A stretch of 64,000 nucleotides of DNA from Myxococcota bacterium (GCA_052034865.1 JBPOIC010000039.1:5195-69194); one strand, 5' to 3'. Numbered from the stretch's first letter, positions 23,535 to 57,886 are shown. Translations and numbers: made by a program. The notes: generated by a model not told the origin, from the letters alone.

Positions 23535-23538
23535 TACT

Positions 23539-32405: not shown

Positions 32406-32498
32406 GTGATTTGTTCAAGACTCCATCGGTTTTTATCTCCGGCTTGAAGACAGCGGAATGACGATCGAGTCTTAAAAATCAAACTGCAGGAGAGTTGA

Positions 32499-32894: not shown

Positions 32895-33049
32895 TCTTTA
32901 GTACTTCATTAGTACTGCAGAATGGACGGAGCAAGTCCGTCTGACAACGGTGAGTTTTTAGATTTATTACTTTTCTGGTTTTTTCCCTTCTTCTGATTGG
33001 GATAAAACCCTTAAGGAAAACAACAGCTGTGGAATGGTGAAATAAAACA

Positions 33050-34543: not shown

Positions 34544-34570
34544 GGATTCTTTATCTCTTATAAGAGAAAC

Positions 34571-36076: not shown

Positions 36077-36123
36077 CACTGAGCTTTAGCCGTCAATCTC
36101 CCTTCAAATTTCTTGACTCATAT

Positions 36124-36756: not shown

Positions 36757-36904
36757 CCCCCCATTCATAATTTCAAAATAAATTCAGGATATAGACAAAA
36801 CTCCAATCGATGTTGTCTCTCTGAGAAAGGGGGCGCTAAAGCAATGCGTTCAATCCTCCAATTTCTCAGCCTCCTTTAATTTAATCTGCTTAAAGGGGGT
36901 ACCT

Positions 36905-38170: not shown

Positions 38171-38188
38171 GAAGATATTTTTGGGTTT

Positions 38189-38539
38189 CTACAAAATCTC
38201 CAACACCTTCTCTGGCGGCCGACCTAAGGCCGCTTTTTTATGGTGCACAACAATCGGTCTTTCCAAAAGGATGGGATTTTGGATGAAGATTTGAATCCAT
38301 TCCTTGTGCGAAAGATTTTTTCCTTTCAGTCCCAACTCCGTAAAGACTGCTTCTTTGGTACGCACGAGTTCTTCCGGCTTAAGCTTGAGCATATTCAACA
38401 CTTCTTCCAGCTCAGAGGCAGACGGAGGATGCTTCAGATAGTCAATTACTTCTGGTTGAAGTCCTCGATTTAAAAGGAGCTCTAAAGTTTGTCTGGATTT
38501 TGAACAGCGGGGGTTGTGATAAATTTTGAGAGTGCTCAT
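38189..38539 (-). CDS. ArsC/Spx-family protein (glutaredoxin-type arsenate reductase-like, YffB-like)
   Basis: MSTLKIYHNPRCSKSRQTLELL... with the CxxS redox motif. Start at ATG 38537-38539. Confidence 0.65.
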   Translation of the reverse strand: MSTLKIYHNPRCSKSRQTLELLLNRGLQPEVIDYLKHPPSASELEEVLNMLKLKPEELVRTKEAVFTELGLKGKNLSHKEWIQIFIQNPILLERPIVVHHKKAALGRPPEKVLEIL

Positions 38540-38607
38540 AGAAGATTTCTGAAATAGGTTGAGCTGATTTTTCGAATTCACTCAACGGTTGGTTTTTTGA
38601 TCTTACT

Positions 38608-39180
38608 CTACCTTTTTACCTCTCCATGCCGAAAACAACTCACTAAATGATCATTCACCATTCCCACCGCCTGCATGTGGGCATAAAGGATTGTAGACCC
38701 TACGAAATTAAATCCTCTCTTTTTTAAATCCTTGCTAAAGGCATCGGAGATGGACGTTTTGGCGGGAACTTCTTTCAAGCTTTTATACCCATTTTGAATT
38801 GGCTGACCCTCCACAAATTGCCATTGGTAATCACTAAAACTTTTGAACTCCTCCAGGAGCTTTATAAATGCCCTGGCATTTTGAACGGTTGATTCTATTT
38901 TCAGTCGATTGCGCACAATACCGGGATTTTGAAGCAGGGAGTTGATTTTCTTCGCATCGTAGCGTGCAATTTTTTCGACCTCGAAATGATCGAAGGCCTG
39001 ACGGTAATTTTCGCGCTTCTTTAAAATCGTTAACCAGCTCAGCCCTGCCTGCGCACCTTCGAGAATTAAAAATTCAAAAAGCAATCGATCATCATAAATC
39101 GGCACACCCCATTCTTCATCGTGATAGCGGATATAGAGGGGATCCTTGTCTGCCCAGGGACAGCGGGAGGAGGATGTCAT
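38608..39180 (-). CDS. tag: DNA-3-methyladenine glycosylase I
   Basis: RCPWADKDPLYIRYHDEEWGVP and EGAQAGLSWLTIL are Tag hallmarks. Confidence 0.85.
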   Translation of the reverse strand: MTSSSRCPWADKDPLYIRYHDEEWGVPIYDDRLLFEFLILEGAQAGLSWLTILKKRENYRQAFDHFEVEKIARYDAKKINSLLQNPGIVRNRLKIESTVQNARAFIKLLEEFKSFSDYQWQFVEGQPIQNGYKSLKEVPAKTSISDAFSKDLKKRGFNFVGSTILYAHMQAVGMVNDHLVSCFRHGEVKR

Positions 39181-39303
39181 ATTAGTCCTTTAGGGATTTT
39201 TTTGTGCTTGTTGTTAAATAGGGGGGTTATGTTTCCAAAGCTCAATGTTGAAAAGACATGTCACTTGACCCTAACTGAAAAAATTCCTACATGTCAAAAA
39301 TCT

Positions 39304-41286
39304 ATGAACACAAATCCTTCCAAACCCACACGGGACGATGTTTGGCTGATGCGCACCTATTCAGGACACACCACCGCAAAGGCCTCCAATCAACTCTATC
39401 GCCAGAATCTGGCCAAAGGTCAGACAGGACTTTCTGTCGCTTTCGATCTGCCGACGCAGACGGGTTACGATTCAGACCATCCGCTGGCTCAGGCCGAGGT
39501 TGGAAAGGTTGGTGTGCCGATCTGTCATATTGAAGATATGGCGACGCTTTTTGATCAAATCCCTTTAAACCAGATGAACACCTCGATGACGATCAACGCG
39601 ACGGCGCCCTGGCTTTTGGCCTTGTATGTCGCGGTCGCCGAACGTCAGGGTGTGAAATCCCAAGCCCTCCAGGGCACGACTCAAAATGACATTCTTAAAG
39701 AATACCTCTCGCGCGGAACCTATGTCTTTCCCCCCGCGCCTTCTCTACGTCTGATCACCGACATCATTGCGTACACCGTCAAACACATTCCAAAATGGAA
39801 TCCGATCAACGTCTGCCCCTATCATCTTCAGGAAGCAGGAGCGACGCCCGTGCAGGAGCTGGCTTATGGGCTGGCGAATGCGATTTGCGTGCTCGATGCC
39901 GTGAAGGCCGCAGGTCAGGTTTCAGCCGATGATTTCGACAAGGCCGTCGGGCGCATTTCGTTTTTCATGGATTCAAGCATTCGCTTTATCGAAGAAATTT
40001 GCAAGGCACGGGCGTTTAATCAGCTTTGGGAAAAGATTACCCAGGAGCGCTACGGTGTGAAAGACCCGAAACACCGCCGTTTCCGCTATGGAGTTCAGGT
40101 CAATTCGTTAGGACTCACCGAGCGCCAGCCGGAAAATAACGTCCAGCGCATTGTTCTTGAAATGCTTGGTGTGACACTTTCCCGCGATGCCCGCGCGCGT
40201 GCGATCCAGCTTCCCTGCTGGAATGAGGCGTTGGGGCTTCCTCGCCCATGGGATCAGCAATGGTCTTTGCGCATGCAACAGGTGATCGCTTACGAAACCG
40301 ATTTGTTGGAATACGGCGATATTTTTGAAGGCTCCAAAGTCATCGAGACAAAAACAAAAGAATTGGCCGAAGCGGCGGAGGCCGAGCTGAATAAAGTGCT
40401 TGAGATCGGAGGTTCGGTCGAGGCGCTGGCATACATGAAACAGCAGATGGTTGCCTCCAATGCCCAGCGGGTGAAAGCCATTGAGGAAAAATCGATCAGG
40501 GTTGTGGGAGTGAACTGTTTTACCGAAAGCGCAGAATCTCCTCTGACGGCGGATGCCGAAGGAGGCATTTTAAAGATTGATCCCAAAGCGGTGGAAGAAA
40601 AAATCCAGTCGCTCCAGGAATTTCGTCGAAATCGAAATGAGAAAGAAGTCACGGCGGCACTCAAAGCCTTGAAAGAAGCTGCGATGGGATCCTCCAACAT
40701 CATGCCCGCCTCCATTCAGGCCGCCAAGGCCGGTGTGACCACCGGGGAATGGTCGAATGTGTTGCGTGAAGTTTTTGGCGAATACCGTGCTCCCACAGGG
40801 GTGAGCGGCGTAAGTGCGGCTTCTGATACCGAAGCACTGAACCTTGCCTGTGAAAAGGTAAATGCCTTTGAGAAAAAGACAGGAGAGAAATTACGTATTC
40901 TGGTTGGCAAACCCGGACTCGATGGTCATAGCAACGGGGCCGAGCAGATCGCCGTGCGCGCCCGCGATGTCGGGATGGAAGTGATCTATCAAGGGATTCG
41001 TCTCACGCCCCAGCAGATTGTCGAATCCGCCTTACAGGAAGGTGTGCACCTCATCGGACTTTCCATCCTCTCTGGTTCGCATCTTTCCTTGATTTCCGAA
41101 ATCCTGCGTTTAATGAAAGAAAAAGGCATCGGAAAAATCCCGCTGGTCGTGGGAGGCATCATCCCCGAATCCGACCAGAAAACCCTTCTCCAACAAGGTG
41201 TTGCCAGAGTTTATACTCCCAAGGATTTCGAGCTCAATCAGATCATGAGTGAGATGGCCGAGGTCGCCTTGAAAGCAAAATCCTGA
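39304..41286 (+). CDS. Fused acyl-CoA mutase (catalytic + B12-binding domain in one chain; Ecm/MeaA/IcmF-catalytic-like; subtype unresolved)
   Basis: WLMRTYSGHTTAKASNQLYRQNLAKGQTGLSVAFDLPTQTGYDSDHP is a mutase substrate-barrel motif with TYSGH rather than MCM QYAGF. C-terminal DGHSNG is the DxHxxG B12-binding His-loop. Start at ATG 39304. Confidence 0.75.
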   Translation: MNTNPSKPTRDDVWLMRTYSGHTTAKASNQLYRQNLAKGQTGLSVAFDLPTQTGYDSDHPLAQAEVGKVGVPICHIEDMATLFDQIPLNQMNTSMTINATAPWLLALYVAVAERQGVKSQALQGTTQNDILKEYLSRGTYVFPPAPSLRLITDIIAYTVKHIPKWNPINVCPYHLQEAGATPVQELAYGLANAICVLDAVKAAGQVSADDFDKAVGRISFFMDSSIRFIEEICKARAFNQLWEKITQERYGVKDPKHRRFRYGVQVNSLGLTERQPENNVQRIVLEMLGVTLSRDARARAIQLPCWNEALGLPRPWDQQWSLRMQQVIAYETDLLEYGDIFEGSKVIETKTKELAEAAEAELNKVLEIGGSVEALAYMKQQMVASNAQRVKAIEEKSIRVVGVNCFTESAESPLTADAEGGILKIDPKAVEEKIQSLQEFRRNRNEKEVTAALKALKEAAMGSSNIMPASIQAAKAGVTTGEWSNVLREVFGEYRAPTGVSGVSAASDTEALNLACEKVNAFEKKTGEKLRILVGKPGLDGHSNGAEQIAVRARDVGMEVIYQGIRLTPQQIVESALQEGVHLIGLSILSGSHLSLISEILRLMKEKGIGKIPLVVGGIIPESDQKTLLQQGVARVYTPKDFELNQIMSEMAEVALKAKS

Positions 41287-41290
41287 ACCC

Positions 41291-44200
41291 TCATTTTTTC
41301 TCTTCCATTTGCTGCACCAGTTGATCTGCAAGCTCTGAAATCGTTGGTCCTTTTAAAAGAAGGGCAATCGGAAGTTTGGTCTGAAGCCCTTGCTCGATTT
41401 CATTTTTGAGCTCAATGGCCATAAGAGAATCGAGTCCCAAATGATTGAGCGATTGCCCCGGCTTTAAACTTTCGGATGTCGATCCCAAAACACGCGCGAG
41501 TTTTTCAGAAATCACCGAAAGAAGCCATTCCCGGCGCTTTTCAGGCGGTTTCTTCAAATAAATTTCATATAAATCCTGTGGAGCTAAACTCGAAGGCACT
41601 CGATTTTGGGTCGTCTCAGGAGATTCCAGTTTTTTTAGCCAAAGCCTTCGTGATTCGGGCAAATTCTCCTGAAGTTTTTTTTGATCCCACGAAACAACAA
41701 TCGGATTGCGTGTCGAGAATCCCGGTGGATCCAACAAAAGTTTCTCCAAAACTCCAAATCCCTGATCCAATGAAAGAGGGTGAATGCCCCAGGCTTGCAT
41801 CCGTTCCACCGTTTTTTCATGGGTTGCCATTCCGACTTTGGCCCACGGTCCCCACACAATGCTTTGTGAGACAAGACCTTCCCGATTTCGCGCATGCGCC
41901 AGTCCATTCAAAAACGCATTGGCAGCGCTGTAGTTTGACTGTGCGTAAGATCCCATCGTGCCTGAAAGTGATGAAAAAAGAATAAAGTAATCCAGTGGGA
42001 TGGAGCGCGTGGCCTCATGCAGGTAAAAGGCTCCCATCGCCTTGGAAGTAAACACGCTTTGAAAATTTTCTTTAGTTTGATGCAGCAAAACTCCATCTTT
42101 CAGAACTCCTGCGAGATGAAAAATTCCTCGCAAGGGCGGAAGATTTTTTTGAAGGACATCGAGTAACGAATCTACCTCCGATCTTTTTGAAAGATCGGCC
42201 GAATGGACAAGCACGTGCGCACCTTCATTTTTCCAGCGGACCATTTCCTGAAGCTGATGTTCGGTGGGAGATTTTCGACTCACCAGAAAGAGATGACGGG
42301 CGCCTTTTGAAATCATCCATCGGGCAAGCTCAAAGCCCAAACCTCCCAGACCTCCGGTGATCAGATAACTGGCATCCCTTGAAAATGAGAACTCATGGGG
42401 TTTTGCCGCGAATGTTTTCGGGCGTTCGTTGAAAGTGAGAACAATTTTTCCCGTATTTTTACGCTGGGCCATGAAGCGAAAAGCATAAGGCGCGTCGCTG
42501 ATGGGAAAGGTTGTATGAGGGATTGGTTTTAAATGTTGATGTTCAAATTGAGAGATGAGTTCCGTGAAGAGTCGATGGGTAAGATCCTGGCGCTCGCGGA
42601 AAATGCGGTCCAAATCGATTGCAAAATAGGAAAGACTTTTCTGAAACGGTAAAAGCCCCAAGGCATGATTTTGATAGATATCGCTTTTTCCGATTTCCAG
42701 AAATCGTCCAAAAGGAGCAAGGGTTTGCAGGCTTTTGGAAATAAACTCCCCGGGAAGCGAGTTGAGCACAAGATCGACTCCGCGATCTTGAGTGAGAGTG
42801 AGAATCTCTTCGGCAAACTTTGTCGTGCGTGAATCAAAAACATGTTCCACACCCAGCGATTTTAAATACGCGCGTTTTTCATCGCTGCCTGCAGTGGCGA
42901 AGATTTCCAATCCTGTTTGTTGAGCGAGTTGAACGGCGGCCAATCCAACGCCACCGGCACCCGCATGAATGAGAATTTTTTCTTTTTTTCGCATGCGTCC
43001 CAGATCATGCAGGGCATGGGTGGCGGTCAGAAATGCCACTGGAACACTGGCCGCTTCTTCAAAGTTTAAATGTGCAGGTTTTAGCACAACGAGTGGAGCC
43101 GCGGTCGTGACGAAGTTTCCAAAGCTGTAGGGTGCAATTGCGATGACTTCATCGCCGACTTTAAAACCTTTCACGCGTTCGCCCAGACGCACAATTTTTC
43201 CCGAACACTCAGCGCCCAAAGGAACGGTCGTCTCACGCGCGCCGGGGTAAAGGCCTAGCGCTTTCAGGACGTCGCTGAAATTAAGACCCGCCGCTCTGAC
43301 GACAATTTCCACTTCATGATCCCCTGGCGCACGACGCACAACCGGTCGAAATCCCATCCCGTCCAGACTTCCGGACTGAACTATTTCCAGGCGATAGGCA
43401 TCGAAATCCTGAATGGATTTGTTTTGCTGTGGAGTCTTCGCAGGTGTTTCCGATGCAATTTTCAGACGGCACACCCATCGTCTGTTTTCGCGAATTAGAA
43501 ATTCATCTTCGTGCGTCGGCCGCATCAGCGTTTGAGTGAGGAGGGTGATTTCTGAAGAGGTCGGATGAGAAGGCAGATCAATGAGACAGAGAGAGAGTTC
43601 GGGGTGCTCCAGCTGTACGCTTCGAAGCATTCCCCAAAGGGCGGTCGCACTGACACCAGGATTTTCTGGGTCGAACGGATGCGCCTGGGCGCCCTGAGTG
43701 ACCACAGTCAGCTTTGGGTAAGAGGGGAGATCGGCTTGCAGGAGCGTTTTCAAAAAGGCGAGAAAATCGCCACAGATTTTTTCAGCCTCCGATATCCCTT
43801 CGAAAGATAAAGGATCGCAGAGAGAATCCATTTCGATCAAAAGATGCTGGCATTCAGACTGTCCCACATGAAACAGGTTTTTTGCATCAGACTCAGACGA
43901 CTCATTTTGGATCTCATCCTGAAAACTTTTCCAACTCTTCGTTAAGACACTCTGTCCCTTTTCTCGAAGTTCTTTTGCAAGAGGACTCGCTTCGTTGGCT
44001 GTCAGCACCAGCCAGGATTCAATTACCTTTACCTCCATCGGAAGAGGTGTTTCATCGATTTCCCATTCCTGCTCAAAAATCAGATTCTCGTTTGACGATT
44101 GGCTTGCCTTTGAAATCTTTCCCAGCCCCGTCAGATGAAGACCCGAAATTATTCCCAAAGTCTTTCCTTCGACATCAAAAAGAAAAATATCTGCCACGAT

Positions 44201-47200
44201 CTTCTCATCCAAAAAAGTGTCCGACTTTATTTTTGCATAGCTCCAGACCGTACTTCCCAAGTCTTTCTTTAAAAAAATCTCATCGATGCGGACTGGAAGA
44301 TAGAGATTTTCAATCGATGAAGATTCTGGAAGAGCGGCTGCCACCACTTGCAGGCAGGCATCCAGAAGGGCGGGATGAAAAGGAGCACTTTGCTCGGGGC
44401 TCTCTGCTTTTAAATTTTTCGGACTTTCAATAAATCCTAGCGCTTCTCTGTTATTTTTAAATAACTTTTGAATTCCCTGAAAAGACGGTCCGTACTCCAA
44501 TCCTGCCCACTTTAGCTTTTGATAAAAATCCTGCACGCCAACAGACTCACACACCCTTTCGCGAATGAAATGGAGGGATAGAGTTTCATCTTTCGATTCC
44601 GGTTTATTCCTTTCATAAGCGATTTCGGCACACGCCTGAAGGGTTTGGTCTGAATCCTCTTGAGAATAAATTTCAAATTCTGATTTGTAAGAAAGAGAGG
44701 AAGTGGAGCGGAGGATGAGAGTCTTTTGTTTTCCTTCATCCAAAAAGAGCGGTTTTTGAAATGAGATCTTTTTCAAAACGATAGAATCCTGCGCGTTTTG
44801 TTTTTTTCCTGCTTCGTAGAGATACGCGAGAGAAGCGGTTGCTGGAAAAAGGATTTCTTTTTGTACACGGTGATCGAGCAGGTAGGGAAAGGTTTTAAGG
44901 TCGATCCGGTGTTCAAATACCGATTCTGATTTTTTTCGTTGGATCGGCAAAAGTGCACTGGATGGTGCTTTGCCCCATTCTCCAAACCAGTAGGATTCCC
45001 TTGCAAAAGGATAAGTGGGGGCCAGCGGCAAGGGTGGAATCGTTTGTCCAAACACAGCTTTCCAATTGACCCACAGGCCGTGCTGATAAAGCGCCGATAA
45101 GGATTTCAGCATTTGATCGCGATCTTCTCCCTCATTTTTAAGACTTGAAAGCCAAAGCCTGGTGGTTCCTGTTTTCGCGAGCCCTCGTTTGGCCAGCAAG
45201 GTGAGGATGGGTTGCGGTCCGATTTCAATCAAGGCGTCGGCGCCTTCACGGATGAGCGTTTCAATGCCGGTAAAATAGCGGACAGGCTCACGCAAATGTT
45301 TGCGCCAATAAGTTGCGGTGGGTGCTGTTTCGAGAAGGTTTCCGGTCCGATTTGAAATCAGTGGAATCTGAGGTTTATAAAAAGAGATCTCTTTCGCTTT
45401 TTCTTCGAACGCATCAAGGATGGGATCCATCAAGGGAGAGTGAAAGGCATGTGATACATTCAAAGTCTGGGTGGCAATCTCAAGCGTAGTGAATTCATCT
45501 TGAAGTGCTTCAATCGCTTCCCGTTTTCCAGATAAAACAAGGGCTCTGGGTCCGTTGAATGCGGCAATCGAAACCTCGTGGGCGTAAGGTTTCAGCGAGG
45601 ATTCAATTTGCTCTTCAGTTGCAATAACGGCGAGCATGGTCCCATTTTTAGGAAGGCCATGCATGAGTTTTGCACGATGCGCGATGAGCGTAAGACCCTC
45701 TTCCCATTCCATCACCTTTGCGACACACGCGGCAACATACTCGCCCACGCTATGACCCAGGACAAAATCAGGTTCAATTCCCCAGGATTTCCATAGCTCG
45801 TACAAGGCATACTCGAGCGCAAAAAGTGCCGGCTGGGTATAGAGGGTTTCGTGGATGAGAGCGGGATTCATTTTAGAATCAAAAAGAATCGAAAGTAATG
45901 AAGTCTCAAGCACGGGTTTCAAAATTCCGTCGCAACGATCCAGCACTTTTCTAAAACAGGGCTCGGATTCATACAGCGAGCAGCCCATTCCCACATATTG
46001 CGATCCCTGGCCGGTAAATAAAAAAGCAATTCTGGGTTTCTTCTTTTGAGAGACAGAAAAATGAATTGAAGATTCTTTCGAGAAACCCTCTTTGTTTTCT
46101 AAAAACGATAAAACAAAATCGGACAGATTTTTTTTAAGCTCGTCCAGGGAGCATGGCAGAAAAAGCGAACGATGCTCAAAATCCGCTCGTCCTGCACATG
46201 CGGTGAAACAGACCTCCTTCAGGGAAAGATAAGAATTATTTTGAAGATAGGAAATCCAGCGTTCTGCGAGTGTTTTTAATCCCTCCACACTTTTAGCCGA
46301 GAGCTTGAAAGGATAAAGGTCTGCATCCTTAAGTTCGGTTGGAAGGGAATCTTTTTGCCTGGCTTCATTTTCTTTATTTATCCAGATTTCTTCAGGACCT
46401 CCAACAACCACATGGGCATTGGTCCCGCCAAATCCAAAAGAGCTGATCCCTGCAAACCTTTGCCTGTTCTGAAAATTCCATGACATCATTTGAGTGGGAA
46501 TCGAAAGTTTCAAGGCAGTCAGATCAATGTGCGGATTGATTTTTTTAAAGTGGAGGTGCGAAGGAATTTGACGATGTTTCAAAGAAAGTAAAACCTTGAT
46601 GAGCCCGGCAATTCCGGCGGCAGCTTCCAGATGTCCAAAGTTGGTTTTGACCGATCCGACTTTGCAAGGTGAGTCTGAAGGGCGATTTTTTTGAAGCACT
46701 TTTCCCAAGGCGGCCATTTCGATCGGATCACCCAGTGGAGTGCCCGTGCCATGGGCCTCCACGTAATCGATTTTTTCGGATGAAATTTTAGCTCTTTGCA
46801 AGGCCTGTAGAATCACATCCTGCTGGGCCTGCCCGTTCGGTGCGGTGAGTCCGTTGCTGCGCCCATCCTGATTGACAGCCGATCCACGAATGATTCCCAA
46901 AATTTCATCTTTATCTCGCACGGCCTCTGCAAGACGCTTGAGAATCACCACTCCACAGCCTTCGCCACGCACATAACCATCCGCTTTCTCATCAAAAGTT
47001 TTGCAGCGCCCTTCAGGGGACATCATCCGTGCCTGTGAAAAGGCGATGTTAAGCTCCGGTCTTAAGATCAGATTGACGCCTCCCGCGAGGGCCAGGTTGG
47101 ATTCCATTCTTCTCAAACTCTCACAGGCCATATGCACGGCGACAAGGGATGAGGAACAGGCCGTGTCGACGGCAAGACTGGGTCCCTGAAAATCAAAAAA

Positions 47201-49942
47201 GTAAGAAAGCCTATTGGCAGCGATGCTGTGGGCATTGCCAACTCCCGCATAGGCATCGATTTTTGAAGGATCTTCCCATTGCAGGTGGGCATAGTCGCTG
47301 CTGCTAATTCCCACAAAAACACCCGTCTTGCTTTTTTGAAGGGTGGAAGGATTAAGAGCCGCGGATTCAAAGGCCTCCCAACTCACTTCCAAAAGCAGGC
47401 GCTGTTGAGGATCCATGCGTGTGGCCTCACGCGGTGAGATTTTAAAAAAGCTGGCATCAAAAAAATCAGGACGGGTAATAAATCCGCCCCAGCGGGTGTT
47501 CATCTTTCCGGCCTCGCCAGGTCTTGGATCGTAATAATCCTCTTCTTTCCAGCGATCGGCAGGAACGGGAGTGATCGCATCTTTTCCAGATTCCAGTAAT
47601 TTCCAGAAGGCCTCCAGATTTTCGGCACCCGGAAAACGACAGGCCATGCCTATCACGGCGATGGGTTCATCCAAATCCCTCTGTTGATTCTCCTTCTTAT
47701 CAATCCGAGGGGTTTCCTCAGAATTCAAAGAGGCATGAGAGCCCATTATAGCCAAATCCGAAAATTCAGGATTTCCCAAATATTCAGCGAGGGCTTTCAT
47801 ATTCGGATATTCCCAAAGCAGGGTAGGGGAGAGTTTGCGTCCGAGCCAGATTTCGAGATCGCCTGAAAGGCCAACGAGTTCTTTTGAATCGAGGCCGTAA
47901 TGCGCAAAACTTTCCTGAGGATCAAGATCATTTGCGCTGACTCCTGCACGAGAAGAAACGGCATTGATAAGCCAGTTCAGGATTTGCTGAGGAAGAGGTT
48001 TTGAAAAATAAGTTTGTCCAGAATTTGCGGTATGGTCAGAATCCGTTTTTTTTACTTCCAGGATAGCATCCTGATTTTTGAATGGGAAAATTTTTGAAGG
48101 GAGATCTTTTTTCCATTGGGCCACAATCTCCATTTTTTTATTTAAGAAATCCTCGCGACAAAAACGGCGGGAAACTTTTCCGCTGGAGGTTTTGGGAAGA
48201 GTTCCCGGACGAATCAGGACAATCGCATGAATGTCGACCTCATGGATTTTTGCAACCTGCTCGCGAATGGCGGAAAAAATACGTTCATAGGATAGTGCTG
48301 AAGAAAGCTCCAGTTTTGAAAGCTCTTGAACAAGGATCAAAAACTCCTCTCCATCTTCATCCACCGAAAACGCAGCACCCGCTCCGGGTCTTAGGGCAGG
48401 ATGGGCCTTCTCAAGGGTTTCCTCCAGATCATGAGGGTAGTGGTTTTGACCATTGAGGATGATGAGATCTTTCAGGCGATCGGTAATAAAAAGTTCACCC
48501 TGGTCGAGAAATCCCAAATCGCCGGTTCGAAGATAGGTGCGATCATTTTTATAATTTGAGGACGGATTGATCACAGCACGAAAGACTTCGCGGGTGAGCT
48601 GCTTTTTTCCCCAATATCCTTGCGCGATACTGGGTCCACTTACCCAGATTTCACCGATCTCTCCGGGTTCACAAGGCAGGCAGGTTTCGGGATGAACGAT
48701 TAATACTTCCTGATCCTGAAATGAATTTCCACACCCGACGAGAATTTTTTCTCCTGAAGGGAGATCACTCAAATCAGAAGAATGAGAAACATCCGTCCTC
48801 TGTACCTCTATAGATCGCCCTTTCTCTGATTCTTTTCTTTCCTTGTTGGCAGGGCTGACACGTCCTTCTTTCAAGAGATCTCGCAGCACTCGTTTGAAAA
48901 CAGGTGGTTGCGTAGCATTTCCACCCGAGACCATCAGGGTTGCTTCTGCCAGTCCATAACAGGGATAGAAGGCCTCAGGTTTAAATCCACAAGGAGCAAA
49001 AACTTTTTGAAATTGTCGCAAGGTTTCCGCGCGCACAGGCTCAGCTCCACAAAAGGCCAGATTCCATGAAGAAAGATTTAGCTGACCAATCTGCTCTGGT
49101 GTAATTTTTCTTAAACATAATTCATAAGCGAAATTGGGCCCACCACTCGTGGTCGCCCTGAAATCACTGATGGCCTTGAGCCATAAAAATGGCTTTTGCA
49201 AAAAGGTGAGGGGCGACATCAAAACACTAAAGCCCCCGCCAAAAAGCGGCTCTAAAATCCCTCCGATCAGTCCCATGTCATGATAGGGTGGCAGCCATGA
49301 AACCCCGCGACTTTTTGGATGAAGATCAAATGCGCGATAAATCAGTCCTAAATTGTGCAAAAGATTTGCGTGTGAAAGCATGACCCCTTTGGGCTGACCC
49401 GTGGAGCCGGAAGTGTATTGAAGAAAAGCGAGATGAGCGGATGAAATTGGCGGGCATTGCCATTCCTTCTTTTCATCTTTTAAATGATCCGTTGTTTCCC
49501 AATTCAGATTTTTTAATGAAGGAGTTCCGGAAAAAATAAGCCGAGCCGTTTGATGAATCGATTCGGTCGTGAGAACCCATTTTGCCCCACTATCCTGAAG
49601 AATCGATTGCAGGCGCGGTAAAGTGCGTGAAAGTCGGTAAGGATCGGGAGGATAGGCCGGTACTGCAATCACACCGGCATAAAGACATCCAAAAAAAGCG
49701 GCGATGTAATCAAGCCCGGGAGGATAGAGCAGCAAGGCCCTTTCTCCCGGAGATACTTTTATTTTCAAATCGCTCGCAATCTGTCTGGCCCGATGGTCGA
49801 GCTCGCGATAGGTGAGGCTTGGGGAGGGCAGATCGTCGGATTCCAGAAAGGTGTAAAGCGTATGATCCGGCATTTCATCGGCATGATATTTCAAGAGATC
49901 AACGAGCGAAGAAATAGATGGAGACACGGAAGGACGAGTCAT
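41291..49942 (-). CDS. FAAL-ACP-KS-AT-DH-(pseudoKR)-ER-KR-ACP megasynthase (fatty acyl-AMP ligase fused to a fully reducing type I PKS module; no TE/R/ST release domain)
   Basis: 2883 aa. FAAL/AMP-binding TSGSTGQPKG (aa 177-186). ACP1 GLDS Ser686 (nt 47885-47887). KS DTACSSS Cys929 (47156-47158) plus EAHGTGT, NFGHLEAAAG. AT GQGSQ and GHSVGE Ser1398 (45749-45751) and HAFH 1498-1501 (malonyl-type). DH LDHRVQKEILFP His1691. ER GAGGVGLAAVQLA. KR TGGLGGLG. ACP2 LGLDS Ser2839 (41426-41428). Protein ends 44 aa after ACP2. Confidence 0.9.
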   Translation of the reverse strand: MTRPSVSPSISSLVDLLKYHADEMPDHTLYTFLESDDLPSPSLTYRELDHRARQIASDLKIKVSPGERALLLYPPGLDYIAAFFGCLYAGVIAVPAYPPDPYRLSRTLPRLQSILQDSGAKWVLTTESIHQTARLIFSGTPSLKNLNWETTDHLKDEKKEWQCPPISSAHLAFLQYTSGSTGQPKGVMLSHANLLHNLGLIYRAFDLHPKSRGVSWLPPYHDMGLIGGILEPLFGGGFSVLMSPLTFLQKPFLWLKAISDFRATTSGGPNFAYELCLRKITPEQIGQLNLSSWNLAFCGAEPVRAETLRQFQKVFAPCGFKPEAFYPCYGLAEATLMVSGGNATQPPVFKRVLRDLLKEGRVSPANKERKESEKGRSIEVQRTDVSHSSDLSDLPSGEKILVGCGNSFQDQEVLIVHPETCLPCEPGEIGEIWVSGPSIAQGYWGKKQLTREVFRAVINPSSNYKNDRTYLRTGDLGFLDQGELFITDRLKDLIILNGQNHYPHDLEETLEKAHPALRPGAGAAFSVDEDGEEFLILVQELSKLELSSALSYERIFSAIREQVAKIHEVDIHAIVLIRPGTLPKTSSGKVSRRFCREDFLNKKMEIVAQWKKDLPSKIFPFKNQDAILEVKKTDSDHTANSGQTYFSKPLPQQILNWLINAVSSRAGVSANDLDPQESFAHYGLDSKELVGLSGDLEIWLGRKLSPTLLWEYPNMKALAEYLGNPEFSDLAIMGSHASLNSEETPRIDKKENQQRDLDEPIAVIGMACRFPGAENLEAFWKLLESGKDAITPVPADRWKEEDYYDPRPGEAGKMNTRWGGFITRPDFFDASFFKISPREATRMDPQQRLLLEVSWEAFESAALNPSTLQKSKTGVFVGISSSDYAHLQWEDPSKIDAYAGVGNAHSIAANRLSYFFDFQGPSLAVDTACSSSLVAVHMACESLRRMESNLALAGGVNLILRPELNIAFSQARMMSPEGRCKTFDEKADGYVRGEGCGVVILKRLAEAVRDKDEILGIIRGSAVNQDGRSNGLTAPNGQAQQDVILQALQRAKISSEKIDYVEAHGTGTPLGDPIEMAALGKVLQKNRPSDSPCKVGSVKTNFGHLEAAAGIAGLIKVLLSLKHRQIPSHLHFKKINPHIDLTALKLSIPTQMMSWNFQNRQRFAGISSFGFGGTNAHVVVGGPEEIWINKENEARQKDSLPTELKDADLYPFKLSAKSVEGLKTLAERWISYLQNNSYLSLKEVCFTACAGRADFEHRSLFLPCSLDELKKNLSDFVLSFLENKEGFSKESSIHFSVSQKKKPRIAFLFTGQGSQYVGMGCSLYESEPCFRKVLDRCDGILKPVLETSLLSILFDSKMNPALIHETLYTQPALFALEYALYELWKSWGIEPDFVLGHSVGEYVAACVAKVMEWEEGLTLIAHRAKLMHGLPKNGTMLAVIATEEQIESSLKPYAHEVSIAAFNGPRALVLSGKREAIEALQDEFTTLEIATQTLNVSHAFHSPLMDPILDAFEEKAKEISFYKPQIPLISNRTGNLLETAPTATYWRKHLREPVRYFTGIETLIREGADALIEIGPQPILTLLAKRGLAKTGTTRLWLSSLKNEGEDRDQMLKSLSALYQHGLWVNWKAVFGQTIPPLPLAPTYPFARESYWFGEWGKAPSSALLPIQRKKSESVFEHRIDLKTFPYLLDHRVQKEILFPATASLAYLYEAGKKQNAQDSIVLKKISFQKPLFLDEGKQKTLILRSTSSLSYKSEFEIYSQEDSDQTLQACAEIAYERNKPESKDETLSLHFIRERVCESVGVQDFYQKLKWAGLEYGPSFQGIQKLFKNNREALGFIESPKNLKAESPEQSAPFHPALLDACLQVVAAALPESSSIENLYLPVRIDEIFLKKDLGSTVWSYAKIKSDTFLDEKIVADIFLFDVEGKTLGIISGLHLTGLGKISKASQSSNENLIFEQEWEIDETPLPMEVKVIESWLVLTANEASPLAKELREKGQSVLTKSWKSFQDEIQNESSESDAKNLFHVGQSECQHLLIEMDSLCDPLSFEGISEAEKICGDFLAFLKTLLQADLPSYPKLTVVTQGAQAHPFDPENPGVSATALWGMLRSVQLEHPELSLCLIDLPSHPTSSEITLLTQTLMRPTHEDEFLIRENRRWVCRLKIASETPAKTPQQNKSIQDFDAYRLEIVQSGSLDGMGFRPVVRRAPGDHEVEIVVRAAGLNFSDVLKALGLYPGARETTVPLGAECSGKIVRLGERVKGFKVGDEVIAIAPYSFGNFVTTAAPLVVLKPAHLNFEEAASVPVAFLTATHALHDLGRMRKKEKILIHAGAGGVGLAAVQLAQQTGLEIFATAGSDEKRAYLKSLGVEHVFDSRTTKFAEEILTLTQDRGVDLVLNSLPGEFISKSLQTLAPFGRFLEIGKSDIYQNHALGLLPFQKSLSYFAIDLDRIFRERQDLTHRLFTELISQFEHQHLKPIPHTTFPISDAPYAFRFMAQRKNTGKIVLTFNERPKTFAAKPHEFSFSRDASYLITGGLGGLGFELARWMISKGARHLFLVSRKSPTEHQLQEMVRWKNEGAHVLVHSADLSKRSEVDSLLDVLQKNLPPLRGIFHLAGVLKDGVLLHQTKENFQSVFTSKAMGAFYLHEATRSIPLDYFILFSSLSGTMGSYAQSNYSAANAFLNGLAHARNREGLVSQSIVWGPWAKVGMATHEKTVERMQAWGIHPLSLDQGFGVLEKLLLDPPGFSTRNPIVVSWDQKKLQENLPESRRLWLKKLESPETTQNRVPSSLAPQDLYEIYLKKPPEKRREWLLSVISEKLARVLGSTSESLKPGQSLNHLGLDSLMAIELKNEIEQGLQTKLPIALLLKGPTISELADQLVQQMEEKK

Positions 49943-49994: not shown

Positions 49995-51254
49995 TCAGGA
50001 GGCGGGTTTGGGCTCTTTTTCTCTCATTTTGCGAACGTATTCGAGAAAGAAAGCAAAAAAGATACTCATGAATAGTCCACCTACGAATGAAACCGCAACT
50101 ATCAGGAGCACCTGGGGTTTGGAAGGATGGGCGGGAGGAATCGCAGAATCAATAATCTGAAACGAAAGATCTTCTTTGGCCTCTTCGATCTTGGCCATTT
50201 GATATTGCTGGGTCAGTAGGCCGTTTACCTTGCCAAGCAGTTCACGTTGAAGAGTAAGATATTGGAGGTAAACCTGAGAAGGGACGGCGTGTACCACCCC
50301 TTCTTTTTTTGCTTCAGAAATTTTAGATTTTAAAGATTCACTTTGTTGTTGAACCTGTTGGGTTGCTGATCTCAATTCCTCGAATGTGGGTGGGGCTTCT
50401 TCCAGTTTTCCGACATGAACATCGATTTGGGGAAGGGTGCTGGAGATTTGATTGGAACTGTAGAATTGGTTGAGCTGTTTTCCGGCCTCCAGAAGATCCA
50501 TTTTATTTTTCTGCAACTGGTCTTCTATAAATATGCGGTTTCTTTTGGCGACTGTGAGCTGGTTGTTATTGATGAAATCCTGAAGGTAAACCAGAAAACG
50601 ATTGGTGATGGTCGCTGCAAGTTCTGGGTTTTTAAGCTCAACCTGAATTTTGATAAGATTGGTTTTTTTATCTTCTTCGACGCTTAAGACCTTTTTCTGA
50701 ATGGCCCGAACAGAGTCTTCAAGAATTTCCCGTTCAATCTTTGCCGGATCGTTTTCCTTGGAACCCAAAAAACTCATATCCGGAAGCCATTTTTTTTCTT
50801 TATCATCCCATCTTTTCTCAAAAAAATACGGCATCAGGTTAAAGTCTCTCACAATATTTTCAATCAAGGTCCTACTTTTTAAAATACCAATGATTTGACC
50901 GCTTTTTTGAGAGCCCAGTCCGAGCTGGCCTCCGACAAGGGGAATCGAGGCCGCTTGAGCTGCCAACGCAGCCAAAGCCCCACCCCCTCCACCCGATTGA
51001 GAAAGGGGCGTGATGGTTGCTTCTGCCTTATATTTTTTCTTTATCGTCAAGGCGGTTCCTGCTCCCAGCCCGGTACAAATAAAGGTCAGAAGAATAATTT
51101 TTCCCAGATGCTTTTTAAGGACACGAAAATAATCTAACAAATTGATTTCTTCTTCAGCAGGGTAAGGGGGATACCATCCATAAGGAGGGGAATAGCCCTG
51201 AGGATGAGGATGGAGAGATTGATCCGCCGATGGTTCGGAAGGGGATTGAGACAT
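49995..51254 (-). CDS. Polysaccharide co-polymerase (Wzz/GumC-like chain-length determinant; no kinase domain)
   Basis: N-terminal LLDYFRVLKKHLGKIILLTFICTGLGAG TM helix (Wzz motif), long coiled-coil periplasmic region, C-terminal TM LLIVAVSFVGGLFMSIFFAFFLEYV. Confidence 0.6.
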   Translation of the reverse strand: MSQSPSEPSADQSLHPHPQGYSPPYGWYPPYPAEEEINLLDYFRVLKKHLGKIILLTFICTGLGAGTALTIKKKYKAEATITPLSQSGGGGGALAALAAQAASIPLVGGQLGLGSQKSGQIIGILKSRTLIENIVRDFNLMPYFFEKRWDDKEKKWLPDMSFLGSKENDPAKIEREILEDSVRAIQKKVLSVEEDKKTNLIKIQVELKNPELAATITNRFLVYLQDFINNNQLTVAKRNRIFIEDQLQKNKMDLLEAGKQLNQFYSSNQISSTLPQIDVHVGKLEEAPPTFEELRSATQQVQQQSESLKSKISEAKKEGVVHAVPSQVYLQYLTLQRELLGKVNGLLTQQYQMAKIEEAKEDLSFQIIDSAIPPAHPSKPQVLLIVAVSFVGGLFMSIFFAFFLEYVRKMREKEPKPAS

Positions 51255-51279: not shown

Positions 51280-52458
51280 TTAGTTATTATTCGTAAGAGT
51301 TACAATTGTAGTTGTGGTAGCCAGTCCAAAGGAAATCAAACTCGTCACAAGCGATACCCAGGAGTCACGACTAAAGATTCTTTCAGGAATATAAATGGTA
51401 TCTCCAGGATTGATGAGAATATCTGAATCGGGTTTTAATTTTTTTACCTCGCCCCCAATACCCATGACTTTCACGTAGCCCTTAGCCATACGGGTCGCTC
51501 CTCCTGCCACCGCCAGATAATGCGAGAGATGATAGTTGTGATTGAAGTTATAGGCGCCTGGGGCAGCCACAGCACCAATCACAAAGACCCGGTCTTCAAA
51601 CGAAGGATAAAAAATATTGTCGTTGGGGAGCTGATTGAGATTGTAATCAAATTTGTTCTGGGTGGTGAACATGTGCGGGACGATGATCACATCCCCATTC
51701 AGAATGAGGGTTTGACTTAAGGTCTCGGGATTGTTGGTAATCTCAACGATGTCTTTTTTCTCATTCTCATCGAATCGAATGATACGTATCGGATCTTTAT
51801 GCGACACCCCCTGGGTCATGCCTCCGGCCAGTTTGAATATATCCAATATGCTCCGTTCGTTATTCAGCTCGTAAATTCCTGGGCGATTGACTGAACCTTC
51901 CACCTGAACAACTCTTTTTCGTAAAGGGATAAAGATGACGTCATTGTCCATCAGGTAGGGGTTATCCTCTAAATGTCCAAATACCTTATAAGAAATCAAA
52001 TCGACTTTTTTGGTTGTGGAAGCCCGCCTCAACTCCACATTCCGATCGGATCCATTTTTTTTGATGCCACCCGCAATCTGCAAGGCCTCGGATAAGCGTG
52101 TGGAGGCTCCAATGCGATAAGTGCCGGGTCGAATCACTTCTCCCAAAATATGAATTTGATACATGAGTCCGGAAGCCCCGAGAGATTCCCGAATGCTACT
52201 TCCTTCCATTCCTTCGAGCTGACGGCGAGTCATTGCACTTCCCACGCCGGCCGCCTTATCGCTAAGACCGCCACTTCCTAAAGAAGGGATGCCTTCCTCT
52301 TCGGTACGTGATCGCAGGCTCCCATCGCGCGTGCCCTCGCCCCCGACAAAAATTCCCTGTTGGGCGAAAAGGTTTAGCGGAAGGAAGGTTTGGAGAAGAA
52401 AGGAAATGAGAAGAAAGAAAGTAAAAAAACGAAATTTTGATAAGTTGGAAAGTTTCAT
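51280..52458 (-). CDS. Polysaccharide export protein (Wza/GumB-like, SLBB domains)
   Basis: Signal peptide; PGDVIIVP/GDTIYIP beta-grasp SLBB repeats; C-terminal hydrophobic helix. Confidence 0.65.
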   Translation of the reverse strand: MKLSNLSKFRFFTFFLLISFLLQTFLPLNLFAQQGIFVGGEGTRDGSLRSRTEEEGIPSLGSGGLSDKAAGVGSAMTRRQLEGMEGSSIRESLGASGLMYQIHILGEVIRPGTYRIGASTRLSEALQIAGGIKKNGSDRNVELRRASTTKKVDLISYKVFGHLEDNPYLMDNDVIFIPLRKRVVQVEGSVNRPGIYELNNERSILDIFKLAGGMTQGVSHKDPIRIIRFDENEKKDIVEITNNPETLSQTLILNGDVIIVPHMFTTQNKFDYNLNQLPNDNIFYPSFEDRVFVIGAVAAPGAYNFNHNYHLSHYLAVAGGATRMAKGYVKVMGIGGEVKKLKPDSDILINPGDTIYIPERIFSRDSWVSLVTSLISFGLATTTTIVTLTNNN

Positions 52459-52724: not shown

Positions 52725-53324
52725 ATGAGACGTTTTCTTCTTTTTATTGTTTGTGGATTATTTCTTTCAAGCTTTTCAGGCTTTGCCAACGAGCCTACCC
52801 TCCACCAGCTCGAAAAGGCTGCTCTTCGTTACGGCAATGTCGATCCTGAAGAAATTGCTCACTGGAAAACCCGAGCCAAATGGTCTCCCTTATTTCCAAA
52901 AGTCTATGTGAGCTACGATCAGAAAGCGGCCAACCAGATCAATAATTCCATTCAGGATTCGGTTTCGGTCACGAGCACTGGCGTTACTCTCGGGCCTCCC
53001 GAATCCTCACTCAATCAAGACAACAATCTAAATCGTGGCTTTGAAGTCCGGGCGACCTGGGATCTCGACACCTTGATCTTTAATAAAGAGCTCCTCTCAC
53101 TTTCATCGGAAGCCAGGTATCGCAATTCGATGCGTGCACAAATTTTATCCGAATTACAGCAAACCTATTTCGAAAGAAAAAAACTTCTGCAACGCGAAGA
53201 GGGAAATTCCCGCGACACCTTATCTTCTTCCACCCAAATTCAGCTCGAAGAGCTTGAGGCAAAACTGGACTCTCTTACGGGAGGTTTTTTTACGAAAACT
53301 TCAGGAGATTCTTATGAAAAATAA
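52725..53324 (+). CDS. Hypothetical secreted protein
   Basis: 199 aa with signal peptide MRRFLLFIVCGLFLSSFSGFA, no recognised domain; overlaps start of next gene. Confidence 0.3.
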   Translation: MRRFLLFIVCGLFLSSFSGFANEPTLHQLEKAALRYGNVDPEEIAHWKTRAKWSPLFPKVYVSYDQKAANQINNSIQDSVSVTSTGVTLGPPESSLNQDNNLNRGFEVRATWDLDTLIFNKELLSLSSEARYRNSMRAQILSELQQTYFERKKLLQREEGNSRDTLSSSTQIQLEELEAKLDSLTGGFFTKTSGDSYEK

Positions 53325-56258: not shown

Positions 56259-56445
56259 CCAGTTTCAACATCAAGTGTTTATACATCCACTTTGGAAACA
56301 TCCTTCCCAGCTGTTTTGCCCTCCACTTATTGCCCATACACTTCCTGATTGATTTCCTTCGATTTTTTTCCTAGATCAGTATCTGTATTTCCAACAACTA
56401 CCGAAGAGCTGGATCTTAAAGGACTTTTTGAGTTCTTGTATTCTT

Positions 56446-57873: not shown

Positions 57874-57886
57874 TATTTTGTCACTC

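Follow-up and report, generated by a model that had tools for sequence, protein, structure and literature searches.

A FAAL-primed polyketide synthase associated with a conserved ceramide gene cluster of uncultured bacteria, and its likely role as an acyl-chain supplier

What becomes of an acyl chain that is built on a megasynthase without any domain to release it? The question is posed by a polyketide synthase (PKS) encoded on the minus strand of a 64,000-nucleotide stretch of DNA from a Myxococcota bacterium (GCA_052034865.1, JBPOIC010000039.1:5195-69194), which was analyzed over its full length and is called the window below. We conclude that this PKS is most likely a stand-alone supplier of acyl chains for sphingolipid synthesis and not a secondary-metabolite assembly line. 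That it feeds the ceramide pathway encoded in the same window appears quite probable to us; that its chain is unloaded by the serine palmitoyltransferase (Spt) of that pathway, in preference to a putative bacterial ceramide synthase (bCerS), is a view that we hold tentatively. The domain content, the intact motifs, and the gene neighborhood conserved in relatives are observed directly; the substrate of the synthase, its number of elongation rounds, the acyltransferase that takes its chain, and what the export proteins encoded beside it do are inferred.

Domain architecture of the synthase

An earlier note, made from the sequence alone, had described one uninterrupted 2,883-codon minus-strand gene for a synthase with a fatty-acyl-AMP ligase (FAAL), acyl carrier protein (ACP), ketosynthase (KS), acyltransferase (AT), dehydratase (DH), enoylreductase (ER), and ketoreductase (KR) in the order FAAL-ACP-KS-AT-DH-ER-KR-ACP. 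Both descriptions proved accurate. The gene occupies positions 41291..49942 (-) as a single open reading frame (ORF) without an internal stop, begins with an ATG that has a GGAG ribosome-binding site 7 nt on its 5' side, and yields, by Pfam matches and motif reading, the order FAAL-ACP-KS-AT-DH-psiKR-ER-KR-ACP, in which psiKR is a pseudo-ketoreductase region (Table 1).

The AMP-binding family PF00501 covers aa 20 to 444 of the protein (E = 2.5e-66) in a match of 425 residues over 381 profile positions, and the DIP2/FAAL-type C-terminal subdomain PF23024 follows at aa 492 to 609 (43 bits versus a cutoff of 27), with PF13193 not being called. The structures 7r7e-g (E ~1e-177) and 3kxw (E = 1.8e-134) align across aa 10 to 612, and the best PDB and NCBIfam matches of the N terminus are all FAALs (7r7e-g, 3kxw, PRK05850, and FadD32), with scores below the equivalog cutoffs. 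The adenylation motifs read SGSTGQPKG178 (A3), YGLAE329 (A5), TGD472 (A7), and PKTSSGK583 (A10), and A5 and A7 are spaced by 143 aa. By these matches, the N-terminal domain is of the FAAL type and not of the acyl-CoA-ligase type, and it is predicted to transfer its acyl group to a carrier; ACP1 (Ser686) is placed immediately after it.

From the KS onward, mycocerosic acid synthase (MAS) of Mycobacterium tuberculosis (9d2z) aligns to aa 759 to 2708 as one stretch, and positions 3 to 2084 of the 2,086 in the NCBIfam Pks2 model match aa 760 to 2879 (1,185 bits versus a cutoff of 2,400). The claim that every catalytic motif is intact holds, except that the DH motif, given as HxxxGxxxxP, reads HRVQKEILFP, with Lys for Gly. 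At this HxxxKxxxxP position, relatives from the clade have G, S, N, or K, and the catalytic His (His1691) is retained; the other DH signatures are LEYGPSF1815 and Asp1861 in LLDACLQ. A search for inactive catalytic residues found none, the Gly-to-Lys change of the DH lying at a clade-variable position. The segment between DH and ER that had been taken for a pseudo-KR-like linker of roughly 240 aa does exist, at about 265 aa, but it is no special linker: the unbroken alignment with MAS identifies it as the ordinary structural psiKR of fully reducing modules.

The AT has the GHSVG and HAFH1498 signatures of the malonyl rather than the methylmalonyl type, with HAFH common to all the listed members of its clade, and its product should be unbranched. 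Taken together, the domains describe what would be a FAAL-primed, fully reducing, malonyl-type module. The saturated ketide extension proposed earlier agrees with this; its restriction to one unit was an assumption. MAS and the SgaA synthase of Pseudomonas fluorescens are both iterative and, by analogy with them, extension by just one C2 unit is no more likely than a very long chain. We know of no sequence signature for the iterative use of a single module.

Pfam searches at E ≤ 0.01 found no thioesterase (TE), thioester reductase, sulfotransferase, or condensation domain in the protein, which terminates 44 aa past Ser2839 of ACP2 in a tail without a docking motif, in agreement with the earlier description of its end. 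With just these 44 aa remaining and no match at that threshold, the idea of a cryptic release domain was rejected. As no release domain is built in, the chain must leave the PKS in trans, which had also been the earlier proposal.

A PKS clade linked to ceramide genes

Searches with the PKS protein recovered at least 8,000 proteins at E ≤ 1e-50. Among the matches listed, dozens are full-length proteins of the same architecture (2,750 to 2,980 aa; 41 to 50% identity); others have added TE or nonribosomal peptide synthetase (NRPS) modules, and many are longer and multimodular. The architecture, which had been singled out as notable, is thus not rare: its domain order alone is common and also opens multimodular PKS/NRPS lines as their first module, as in the look-alike P0042 (42% identical; locus L007). 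Look-alikes at 41 to 43% identity have C-terminal tails of 91 to 94 aa, several of them with an EEVEALL-type docking motif; the window PKS and its nearest relatives end 47 to 68 aa past the matched GxDS motif of ACP2 and have no docking motif. In an unbootstrapped neighbor-joining tree of 52 PKS matches of the same size, the short-tailed proteins form a clade of 12 members, which includes the window PKS and all six relatives whose neighborhoods were read (loci L001 to L006). The window PKS would accordingly be placed in a separate, sphingolipid-linked clade without a docking tail, the named members of which are metagenome-assembled genomes (MAGs) labeled "Deltaproteobacteria bacterium" or "bacterium"; a scan of genome contigs with the PKS alone gave no match. 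The single gene is less remarkable than first thought, and the conserved system around it is more so.

The six relatives have a PKS 44 to 50% identical to that of the window, all come from metagenomes or MAGs, and were read as 28-kb loci; all six share one super-cluster around the PKS. Its PKS operon runs in the order SLBB/Wza-like gene (5/6), Wzz-like gene, PKS, optional stand-alone FAAL-ACP gene (4/6), type II thioesterase (TEII) gene, and optional phosphopantetheinyl transferase (PPTase) gene (4/6), the TEII being a discrete PF00975 protein encoded after the PKS or the FAAL-ACP in every one of them. Converging on this operon are three genes, for a reductase of the epimerase family, a protein of 378 aa in which only a faint GNAT signal is seen, and an Aminotran_1_2 protein, whose order and families are those of the CerR-bCerS-Spt pathway of bacterial ceramide synthesis (CerR, ceramide reductase) (PMC11087976, PMC9386255). 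The PKS and Spt genes are not adjacent and lie 3 to 5 kb apart. The PKS is thus found within about 5 kb of the Spt-bCerS-CerR trio in 6/6 relatives, which lends strong comparative support to Spt as an acceptor, one of the candidates of the earlier note; bCerS is equally placed and had been left out.

Usually, genes for sphingolipid desaturase, fatty-acid hydroxylase, PAP2_3, LPG_synthase_TM, CE4 deacetylase, and GT4 glycosyltransferase proteins are also present in the relatives. A divergent operon encodes a secreted protein of about 200 aa, a lamin-tail-domain (LTD) protein, and an exported metallo-beta-lactamase-fold (MBL) protein, often followed by a small Bac_transf protein. The stand-alone FAAL-ACP (about 680 to 710 aa; 49 to 50% identical to the PKS N terminus) occurs in L001, L002, L003, and L006, on the 3' side of the PKS in three of them and on the 5' side in one, and is absent from the window, L004, and L005; it may supply a second acyl chain. 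No further PKS or NRPS module was found in the six 28-kb loci or in the window.

We compared these loci with 80 control loci from named genomes, taken from the matches listed for more distant Spt genes (43 to 53% identity), 62 of the loci being at least 10 kb long. Beside Spt, the controls have bCerS in 44/80, CerR in 46/80, and both in 30/80, and the PKS, Wzz, SLBB, 200-aa, LTD, and MBL genes in 0/80 within 10 kb of Spt. These additional genes are therefore specific to the version of the ceramide cluster found in this lineage. A further locus, L156, whose Spt is 66% identical to that of the window, separates the two parts of the system. There, head-group genes (among them PAP2_3, GT4, CE4, and a PIG-L deacetylase) precede Spt, bCerS, and CerR, on which Wzz and SLBB converge directly, with the 200-aa, LTD, and MBL genes divergent; the locus has no PKS, thioesterase, PPTase, or FAAL-ACP gene. 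Because Wzz/SLBB and the ceramide genes stay together here without a PKS, we take the exporter to belong with the sphingolipid system and the PKS to be an addition to it. In this reading, the genes for envelope and export functions are tied to sphingolipid synthesis as such, and the PKS block is an optional insert between Wzz and CerR.

Table 1. Features of the window, with the domains of the PKS given by residue (aa) and their identifying matches
Feature	Position (strand)	Residues	Basis
GT4 glycosyltransferase	1171..2475 (+)		Best NCBIfam matches GlcNAc transferases BshA, MshA
CE4 polysaccharide deacetylase	2399..3127 (+)		Pfam, NCBIfam
LPG_synthase_TM/flippase-like membrane protein	3104..4201 (-)		Pfam, NCBIfam
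PAP2_3 head-group transferase	4352..5392 (-)		Pfam; NCBIfam NF052609 (E = 1.9e-50; 172 bits vs cutoff of 480)
Spt	5651..6919 (+)		Pfam; PDB 3a2b, 8guh; NCBIfam SerpalmtaseCFB
bCerS (putative bacterial ceramide synthase)	6909..8042 (+), ORF from 6870		Position between Spt and CerR
CerR-like reductase, NAD-dependent epimerase family	8428..9441 (+)		PF01370, PF07993
PKS ACP2	41321..41512 (-)	2811-2874, Ser2839	Pfam PP-binding, motif
PKS KR	41840..42373 (-)	2524-2701	TGGLGGLG2529, LKD 2614-2616 (LxD, B-type), Tyr2671
PKS ER	42437..43324 (-)	2207-2502	ADH_N/ADH_zinc_N; HAGAGGVG2326
PKS psiKR region	43325..44119 (-)	1942-2206	Unbroken alignment with MAS 9d2z; no other Pfam domain there
PKS DH	44120..44932 (-)	1671-1941	PKS_DH_N 1671-1761, PS-DH 1794-1941
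PKS AT	45122..46024 (-)	1307-1607	Pfam; GHSVG Ser1398, HAFH1498
PKS KS	46547..47668 (-)	759-1132	Pfam; Cys929, His1064, His1104
PKS ACP1	47777..47980 (-)	~655-722 (approximate boundaries), Ser686	PP-binding stretch; GLDS from residue 683
PKS FAAL	48107..49915 (-)	10-612	PF00501, PF23024; PDB 7r7e-g, 3kxw; NCBIfam fatty-acid-AMP ligase, FadD32
Wzz/GNVR polysaccharide co-polymerase-like protein	49995..51254 (-)		Pfam; weak NCBIfam EpsF, pepcterm_ChnLen
SLBB outer-membrane polysaccharide-export-like protein	51280..52458 (-)		Signal peptide, C-terminal hydrophobic helix like that of Wza
Conserved secreted ~200-aa protein	52725..53324 (+)		First gene of divergent operon; signal peptide
Lamin-tail-domain protein, 2 x LTD	53134..55134 (+)		Pfam; conserved in relatives
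Exported MBL-fold protein (ComEC-type MBL)	55131..56258 (+)		Conserved in relatives
Small polyprenyl-phosphate sugar-phosphate transferase, Bac_transf	56428..57126 (+)		TIGR03025 (309 bits, above cutoff)

In the window, the best PDB matches of Spt are the serine palmitoyltransferase (SPT) structures 3a2b and 8guh of S. multivorum (E ~1e-106), and its best NCBIfam model, SerpalmtaseCFB (455 bits; cutoff of 640), exceeds bioF (379 bits), so that by sequence it is a genuine SPT relative. It falls in the Bacteroidota/deltaproteobacterial SPT subgroup, in a tight clade of about 40 proteins with 62 to 72% identity (the next proteins being at ≤56%), a few of which are labeled "Deltaproteobacteria bacterium." The putative bCerS has no match in Pfam, NCBIfam, or PDB (including a bCerS profile run against PDB sequences), and its single-sequence AlphaFold model (pLDDT of 34) was unusable. 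Its assignment rests on its position between Spt and CerR, which is the same in the window, L001 to L006, and L156, on homologs beside Spt in distant loci, and on the faint GNAT signal in its orthologs. The CerR-like protein would be the ceramide reductase, a catalytic role assigned from its family, and none of the conserved core genes of the cluster was seen to encode a short-chain KDSR. Orthology of the window genes to those of L001, established by tblastn, is borne out by identities of 72% for Spt, 69% for bCerS, 54% for CerR, 49% for PAP2_3, 58% for Wzz, 65% for SLBB, 60% for the 200-aa protein, 56% for MBL, and 69% for Bac_transf.

The PAP2_3 protein is related to phosphoinositol dihydroceramide synthase, with its NF052609 match below the cutoff. 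As a separate observation, the window has its PAP2_3, GT4, CE4, and flippase-like genes beside Spt, as L156 has its head-group genes (4197..9868) together with the PIG-L deacetylase. The GT4 and CE4 pair forms the outer edge of the cluster and closes it also in L004, L005, and L006. The head-group genes hint at a GlcN-bearing phospho-ceramide, made in a manner like the first steps of glycosylphosphatidylinositol (GPI)-anchor synthesis.

On the other side of the PKS, the presence of polysaccharide export genes next door was confirmed: the Wzz/GNVR gene lies directly upstream in the same direction, with a gap of 52 bp, and the SLBB gene lies upstream of that one on the same strand, across 25 bp. 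In the Wzz-like protein, two transmembrane (TM) helices accompany a long coiled region in the periplasm, and a kinase domain is missing. Its orthologs precede the PKS operon in L001 to L006, L091, and L092, and relatives with at least 49% identity precede a PKS (L091, L092, and L094); SLBB lies upstream of Wzz also in L001, L003 to L006, and L156. No Poly_export (PES) domain was detected in the SLBB protein with Pfam, all curated polysaccharide-export models of NCBIfam match the pair weakly, with scores far below the cutoffs, and the conserved core of the seven loci has no Wzx, Wzy, or ABC transporter. A promoter and terminator scan of 40.8 to 53.4 kb gave results at or below chance and was uninformative about the operon. 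The secreted 200-aa protein, without a match in Pfam or NCBIfam, has orthologs (54 to 56% identity) in the same position in L001, L003 to L006, L113, and L156. From its listed GTG start (53134), the LTD gene shares 190 nt with the 200-aa gene; the true start is probably a Met near 53314, which yields a typical lipoprotein signal (FSSC). The N terminus of the MBL protein is likewise lipoprotein-like, and Bac_transf occurs also in L001, L003, and L005.

More distant Wzz relatives (35 to 48% identity) lie in capsule-like loci with Bac_transf, SLBB, GT4, MBL, LPG_synthase_TM, and Wzi, sometimes with a CDP-alcohol phosphatidyltransferase and an inositol-phosphate synthase, and with neither a PKS nor Spt. 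In L088, L089, and L097, for example, Wzz/SLBB lie beside Wzi, LPG_synthase_TM, and an exported MBL; two of these three also have a CDP-alcohol phosphatidyltransferase, with or without an inositol-1-phosphate synthase. Capsule-like systems coupled to particular membrane-lipid head-group genes may, by this evidence, form a wider family.

The window holds the same blocks as the relatives in the same relative orientation, with the PKS operon converging on the Spt operon, but in it the two are separated. From CerR to the PKS stop codon is 31.85 kb (34 kb between PKS and Spt), and housekeeping DNA (9441..41291) takes the place of the thioesterase and PPTase genes of the relatives: proA, rsfS, rlmH, iPGM, citrate synthase, transaldolase, an M3 peptidase, and the nuo operon, along with a FadL-like porin, ArsC, Tag, and methylmalonyl-CoA mutase. 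Searching the 64-kb window by tblastn with the genes of the relatives (E ≤ 1e-5) found no TEII, PPTase, stand-alone FAAL-ACP, desaturase, or hydroxylase. The GC content is even over the junctions. The split may be a MAG assembly join, though another genome splits the cluster differently: contig ORMF011117230.1 (411 kb; L113 and L135) carries orthologs of Wzz, SLBB, the 200-aa gene, LTD, MBL, and Bac_transf at 127 to 148 kb (L113), and, at 172 to 193 kb (L135), a second Wzz, 37% identical, directly 5' of the PKS.

Several other features of the window deserve mention. At 57303..59108, between Bac_transf and genes for a sulfatase-family protein and a GT4 enzyme, lie a 164-aa fragment of an IS1595-family transposase and a transposase-like helix-turn-helix gene, possible traces of rearrangement at the locus. 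A 435-aa ORF (27559..28866, -), without a Pfam or NCBIfam family, sits between nuoH and nuoI, antisense to the otherwise codirectional nuo operon; NuoH itself (26201..27562) is unusually long at 453 aa, with the NADHdh model (298 positions) covering residues 41 to 446. The FadL-like porin is a FadL/TodX-type outer-membrane fatty-acid channel encoded at 36905..38170, 3 kb past the PKS stop, and the methylmalonyl-CoA mutase gene (39121..41286) ends on the other strand 5 bp from that stop. Neither is conserved beside the PKS in the relatives, and no functional link was seen. The mutase was rejected as a supplier of extender units: the AT is of the malonyl type, and the mutase is a convergent housekeeping gene.

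Candidate acceptors of the PKS-bound chain

We propose the following sequence of steps. The FAAL would adenylate a free fatty acid and place the acyl group on ACP1; KS and the malonyl-specific AT would add C2; and KR, DH, and ER would reduce the extension fully, leaving, after one or several rounds, a longer saturated acyl chain on ACP2. Spt would then take the chain in trans, joining acyl-ACP2 and serine by a decarboxylative Claisen condensation into a 3-keto long-chain base, which bCerS and CerR would convert to ceramide. The PAP2_3, GT4, deacetylase, and flippase-like proteins would decorate the ceramide, and the Wzz-like and SLBB proteins, along with the divergently encoded 200-aa, LTD, and MBL proteins, would act at the envelope on the sphingolipid or on a glycan attached to it. 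The ceramide enzymes are natural acceptors because of three precedents: an acyl-ACP that a dedicated AMP-forming ligase has charged can be the preferred substrate of bacterial SPTs, as with AasR/AcpR (PMC9386255); the iterative PKS SgaA of P. fluorescens feeds the SPT SgaB to give C24-C28 sphinganines (PMC12134224); and the cytoplasm is the location of both Spt and bCerS (PMC11087976), where each of them could encounter the PKS. The lack of a TEII gene in the window would also fit release without hydrolysis.

Several points weigh against a handover from ACP2 to Spt, which we accordingly put forward as a tentative proposal. In every locus, bCerS is as near to the PKS as Spt is. The characterized members of the SPT subgroup to which the window Spt belongs use acyl-CoA, and it is in the Rhodobacteria subgroup alone that a dependence on ACP has been demonstrated (PMC9386255). 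L156 has Spt-bCerS-CerR and Wzz/SLBB with no PKS, so Spt can do without one. The TEII present in 6/6 PKS-bearing relatives may be the real release enzyme, with a copy perhaps elsewhere in this genome. Finally, 34 kb with housekeeping genes lies between the PKS and Spt in the window.

The strongest alternative, although we hold it to be less likely than unloading by Spt, is that bCerS and not Spt takes the PKS chain, which would then become the amide-linked acyl group and make the PKS a counterpart of the eukaryotic very-long-chain elongase; the substrate of Spt would be an ordinary acyl-CoA or acyl-ACP or, where the stand-alone FAAL-ACP is present, the acyl-ACP that this protein provides. Eukaryotic ceramides bear a very long N-acyl chain made by an elongase, and the relatives carry eukaryote-like desaturase, hydroxylase, and Aur1-like head-group genes. 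The Caulobacter bCerS, however, has reportedly been characterized with acyl-CoA and not with acyl-ACP. As to location, bCerS is encoded between Spt and CerR and is cytoplasmic (PMC11087976). As to division of labor, the stand-alone FAAL-ACP of L001, L002, L003, and L006 resembles Caulobacter AasR/AcpR (PMC9386255) and could free the PKS for a second chain, but the window, L004, and L005 are without it. The membership of the window Spt in an acyl-CoA-using subgroup (PMC9386255) and the PKS-less Spt of L156 also speak for bCerS; against it, the one characterized bacterial PKS-sphingolipid system sends its chain to the SPT (PMC12134224). Spt stays our preferred acceptor, at the strength given above.

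An improbable alternative is that a TEII encoded elsewhere in the genome hydrolyzes the chain to a free elongated fatty acid, which is then reactivated for sphingolipid or other envelope lipid synthesis. The earlier view that there is no release enzyme is correct for the protein and for the window but not for the system, since the relatives have a TEII gene right after the PKS, or after the FAAL-ACP, in all six cases. On the other side, no such gene lies in the window even though the PKS ORF is intact, hydrolysis followed by reactivation would be wasteful with two acyltransferases encoded alongside, and type II thioesterases of PKS/NRPS clusters are usually editing enzymes. The TEII of the relatives would be either an editing or a releasing enzyme, and its absence from the window mildly favors editing.

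It is very improbable that the PKS product is a lipid anchor or acyl decoration of a Wzz/SLBB-exported polysaccharide, independent of the sphingolipid genes. The PKS is indeed codirectional with Wzz and SLBB across the short gaps given above, and a polyprenyl-phosphate sugar transferase and sugar genes are nearby. The earlier candidacy of the glycan/Wzz-Wza machinery as a direct acceptor nevertheless does not survive L156, where Wzz/SLBB and the 200-aa, LTD, and MBL genes accompany Spt-bCerS-CerR without a PKS; moreover, the distant Wzz relatives lie in capsule-like loci without any PKS, and no conserved acyltransferase of the cluster could move the chain to a glycan. Least probable of all is that the PKS is the loading module of a larger PKS/NRPS line with other modules outside the window: the same domain order does serve as a first module elsewhere (L007), and many of the listed matches are longer and multimodular, but the starter-module role was rejected in view of the 44-aa tail without a docking motif, the placement in a different, sphingolipid-linked clade, and the lack of downstream modules in the relatives and the window.

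The super-cluster as a whole might make a sphingolipid-anchored surface glycoconjugate, a ceramide-based analog of lipopolysaccharide or of a GPI-like anchor, although we regard this as unlikely. The PKS-elongated lipid would receive its head group from the Aur1-like PAP2_3, GT4, de-N-acetylase, and flippase-like proteins and would be delivered to the surface through a Wzz-like/SLBB conduit of the polysaccharide co-polymerase/outer-membrane polysaccharide export (PCP/OPX) type instead of Lpt paralogs.

Implications and comparison with known systems

Bacterial sphingolipids were long thought to be rare, and the canonical Spt, bCerS, and CerR genes were defined recently. The first demonstration of a PKS feeding an SPT dates from 2025, in Pseudomonas (PMC12134224). 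The locus described here and its relatives suggest a second, different way of plugging a PKS into sphingolipid synthesis, in which a FAAL-primed, MAS-like elongation module is inserted in a canonical ceramide cluster, and the prediction that follows is that an uncultured lineage makes sphingolipids whose saturated chains are unusually long. The passage of sphingolipids and glycoconjugates across the periplasm is still called "a mystery" (2026 preprint, 10.64898/2026.04.12.717747); the constant company of ceramide genes with Wzz-like and Wza-like proteins, even without a PKS, offers a concrete hypothesis for this crossing. If true, the glycoconjugate reading would be a previously undescribed sphingolipid route to the outer membrane of uncultured "Deltaproteobacteria." In the literature searched, which did not cover all journals, we found no description of a FAAL-PKS inside a canonical Spt-bCerS-CerR cluster or of Wzz/Wza-like genes tied to sphingolipid genes. 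A rule for genome mining also follows: FAAL-PKS proteins of this clade, having no docking tail, are not to be read as orphan lipopeptide starter modules.

Of the known systems, the closest in logic is SgaAB(C) of P. fluorescens MYb115, described by Peters et al. in 2025, which makes very long (C24-C28) sphinganines and phospho-sphingolipids (PMC12134224). In both cases, a single-module type I PKS without built-in release is paired with an SPT-type alpha-oxoamine synthase, and in SgaAB the PKS-made chain becomes the sphingoid base (PMC12134224). The likeness is one of logic and does not extend to the cluster features; the text of that paper gives no domain order for SgaA (PMC12134224). SgaA and SgaB are adjacent in a two-gene cluster, unlike the window PKS and its distant Spt, and the same biosynthetic gene cluster contains the eukaryote-type KDS reductase SgaC, the route being called non-canonical; here, bCerS and CerR take that place, the PKS is FAAL-primed, and it goes with the canonical Spt-bCerS-CerR trio and the Wzz/SLBB export genes.

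The best solved or curated match of the window PKS is the mycobacterial combination of a FadD protein with a MAS-like PKS (MAS or Pks2), in which a FAAL likewise passes a long fatty acid to a KS-AT-DH-ER-KR-ACP synthase that has no thioesterase, and a separate acyltransferase removes the product from the ACP. The differences are that FAAL and ACP are fused to the PKS here, that the AT is of the malonyl (HAFH) and not the methylmalonyl type, with scores below the curated cutoffs, that sphingolipid genes and not PapA-type acyltransferases or MmpL surround it, and that the host belongs to an uncultured Gram-negative lineage. Because of its malonyl-type AT and these subcutoff scores, the window PKS is not a mycocerosic-type synthase; it would be a relative of the mycocerosic and phthioceranic synthases and not a member of that group.

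Fungi that make fumonisins and sphingofungins use a pyridoxal phosphate-dependent alpha-oxoamine synthase of the Fum8/SphA type to unload a highly reducing PKS that has no release domain, and 9pep, "Aminoacyl transferase sphA," is among the PDB matches of the window Spt. The fungal PKSs are eukaryotic and iterative, their products are toxins that mimic sphingoid bases, they are not primed by a FAAL, and their enzymes are not orthologous to those described here. The cyanobacterial olefin synthase Ols (FAAL-ACP-KS-AT-KR-ACP-ST-TE, where ST is a sulfotransferase) is also a FAAL-ACP-primed single elongation module acting on a fatty acid, but it lacks both DH and ER, and its C terminus is formed by the sulfotransferase and thioesterase domains; with ST and TE both absent from the window PKS, identity with Ols was rejected. 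In the AasR-AcpR-Spt system of Caulobacter and other Rhodobacteria (PMC9386255), a dedicated ligase charges a dedicated carrier with a free fatty acid, and FAAL-ACP1 follows the same logic. Here, however, the ligase is fused to its carrier, a full elongation module with a second ACP comes after them, and the window Spt belongs to the other, Bacteroidota/deltaproteobacterial SPT subgroup. Finally, the export genes share with the PCP/OPX (Wzz/Wzc-Wza) systems the Wzz domain, the GNVR region, the two-TM topology, and an SLBB partner that begins with a signal peptide and has a hydrophobic helix at its C terminus. They differ from these in having no kinase domain, no detected Poly_export domain, and no Wzx, Wzy, or ABC transporter in the conserved core, and in being linked instead to the genes of ceramide synthesis.

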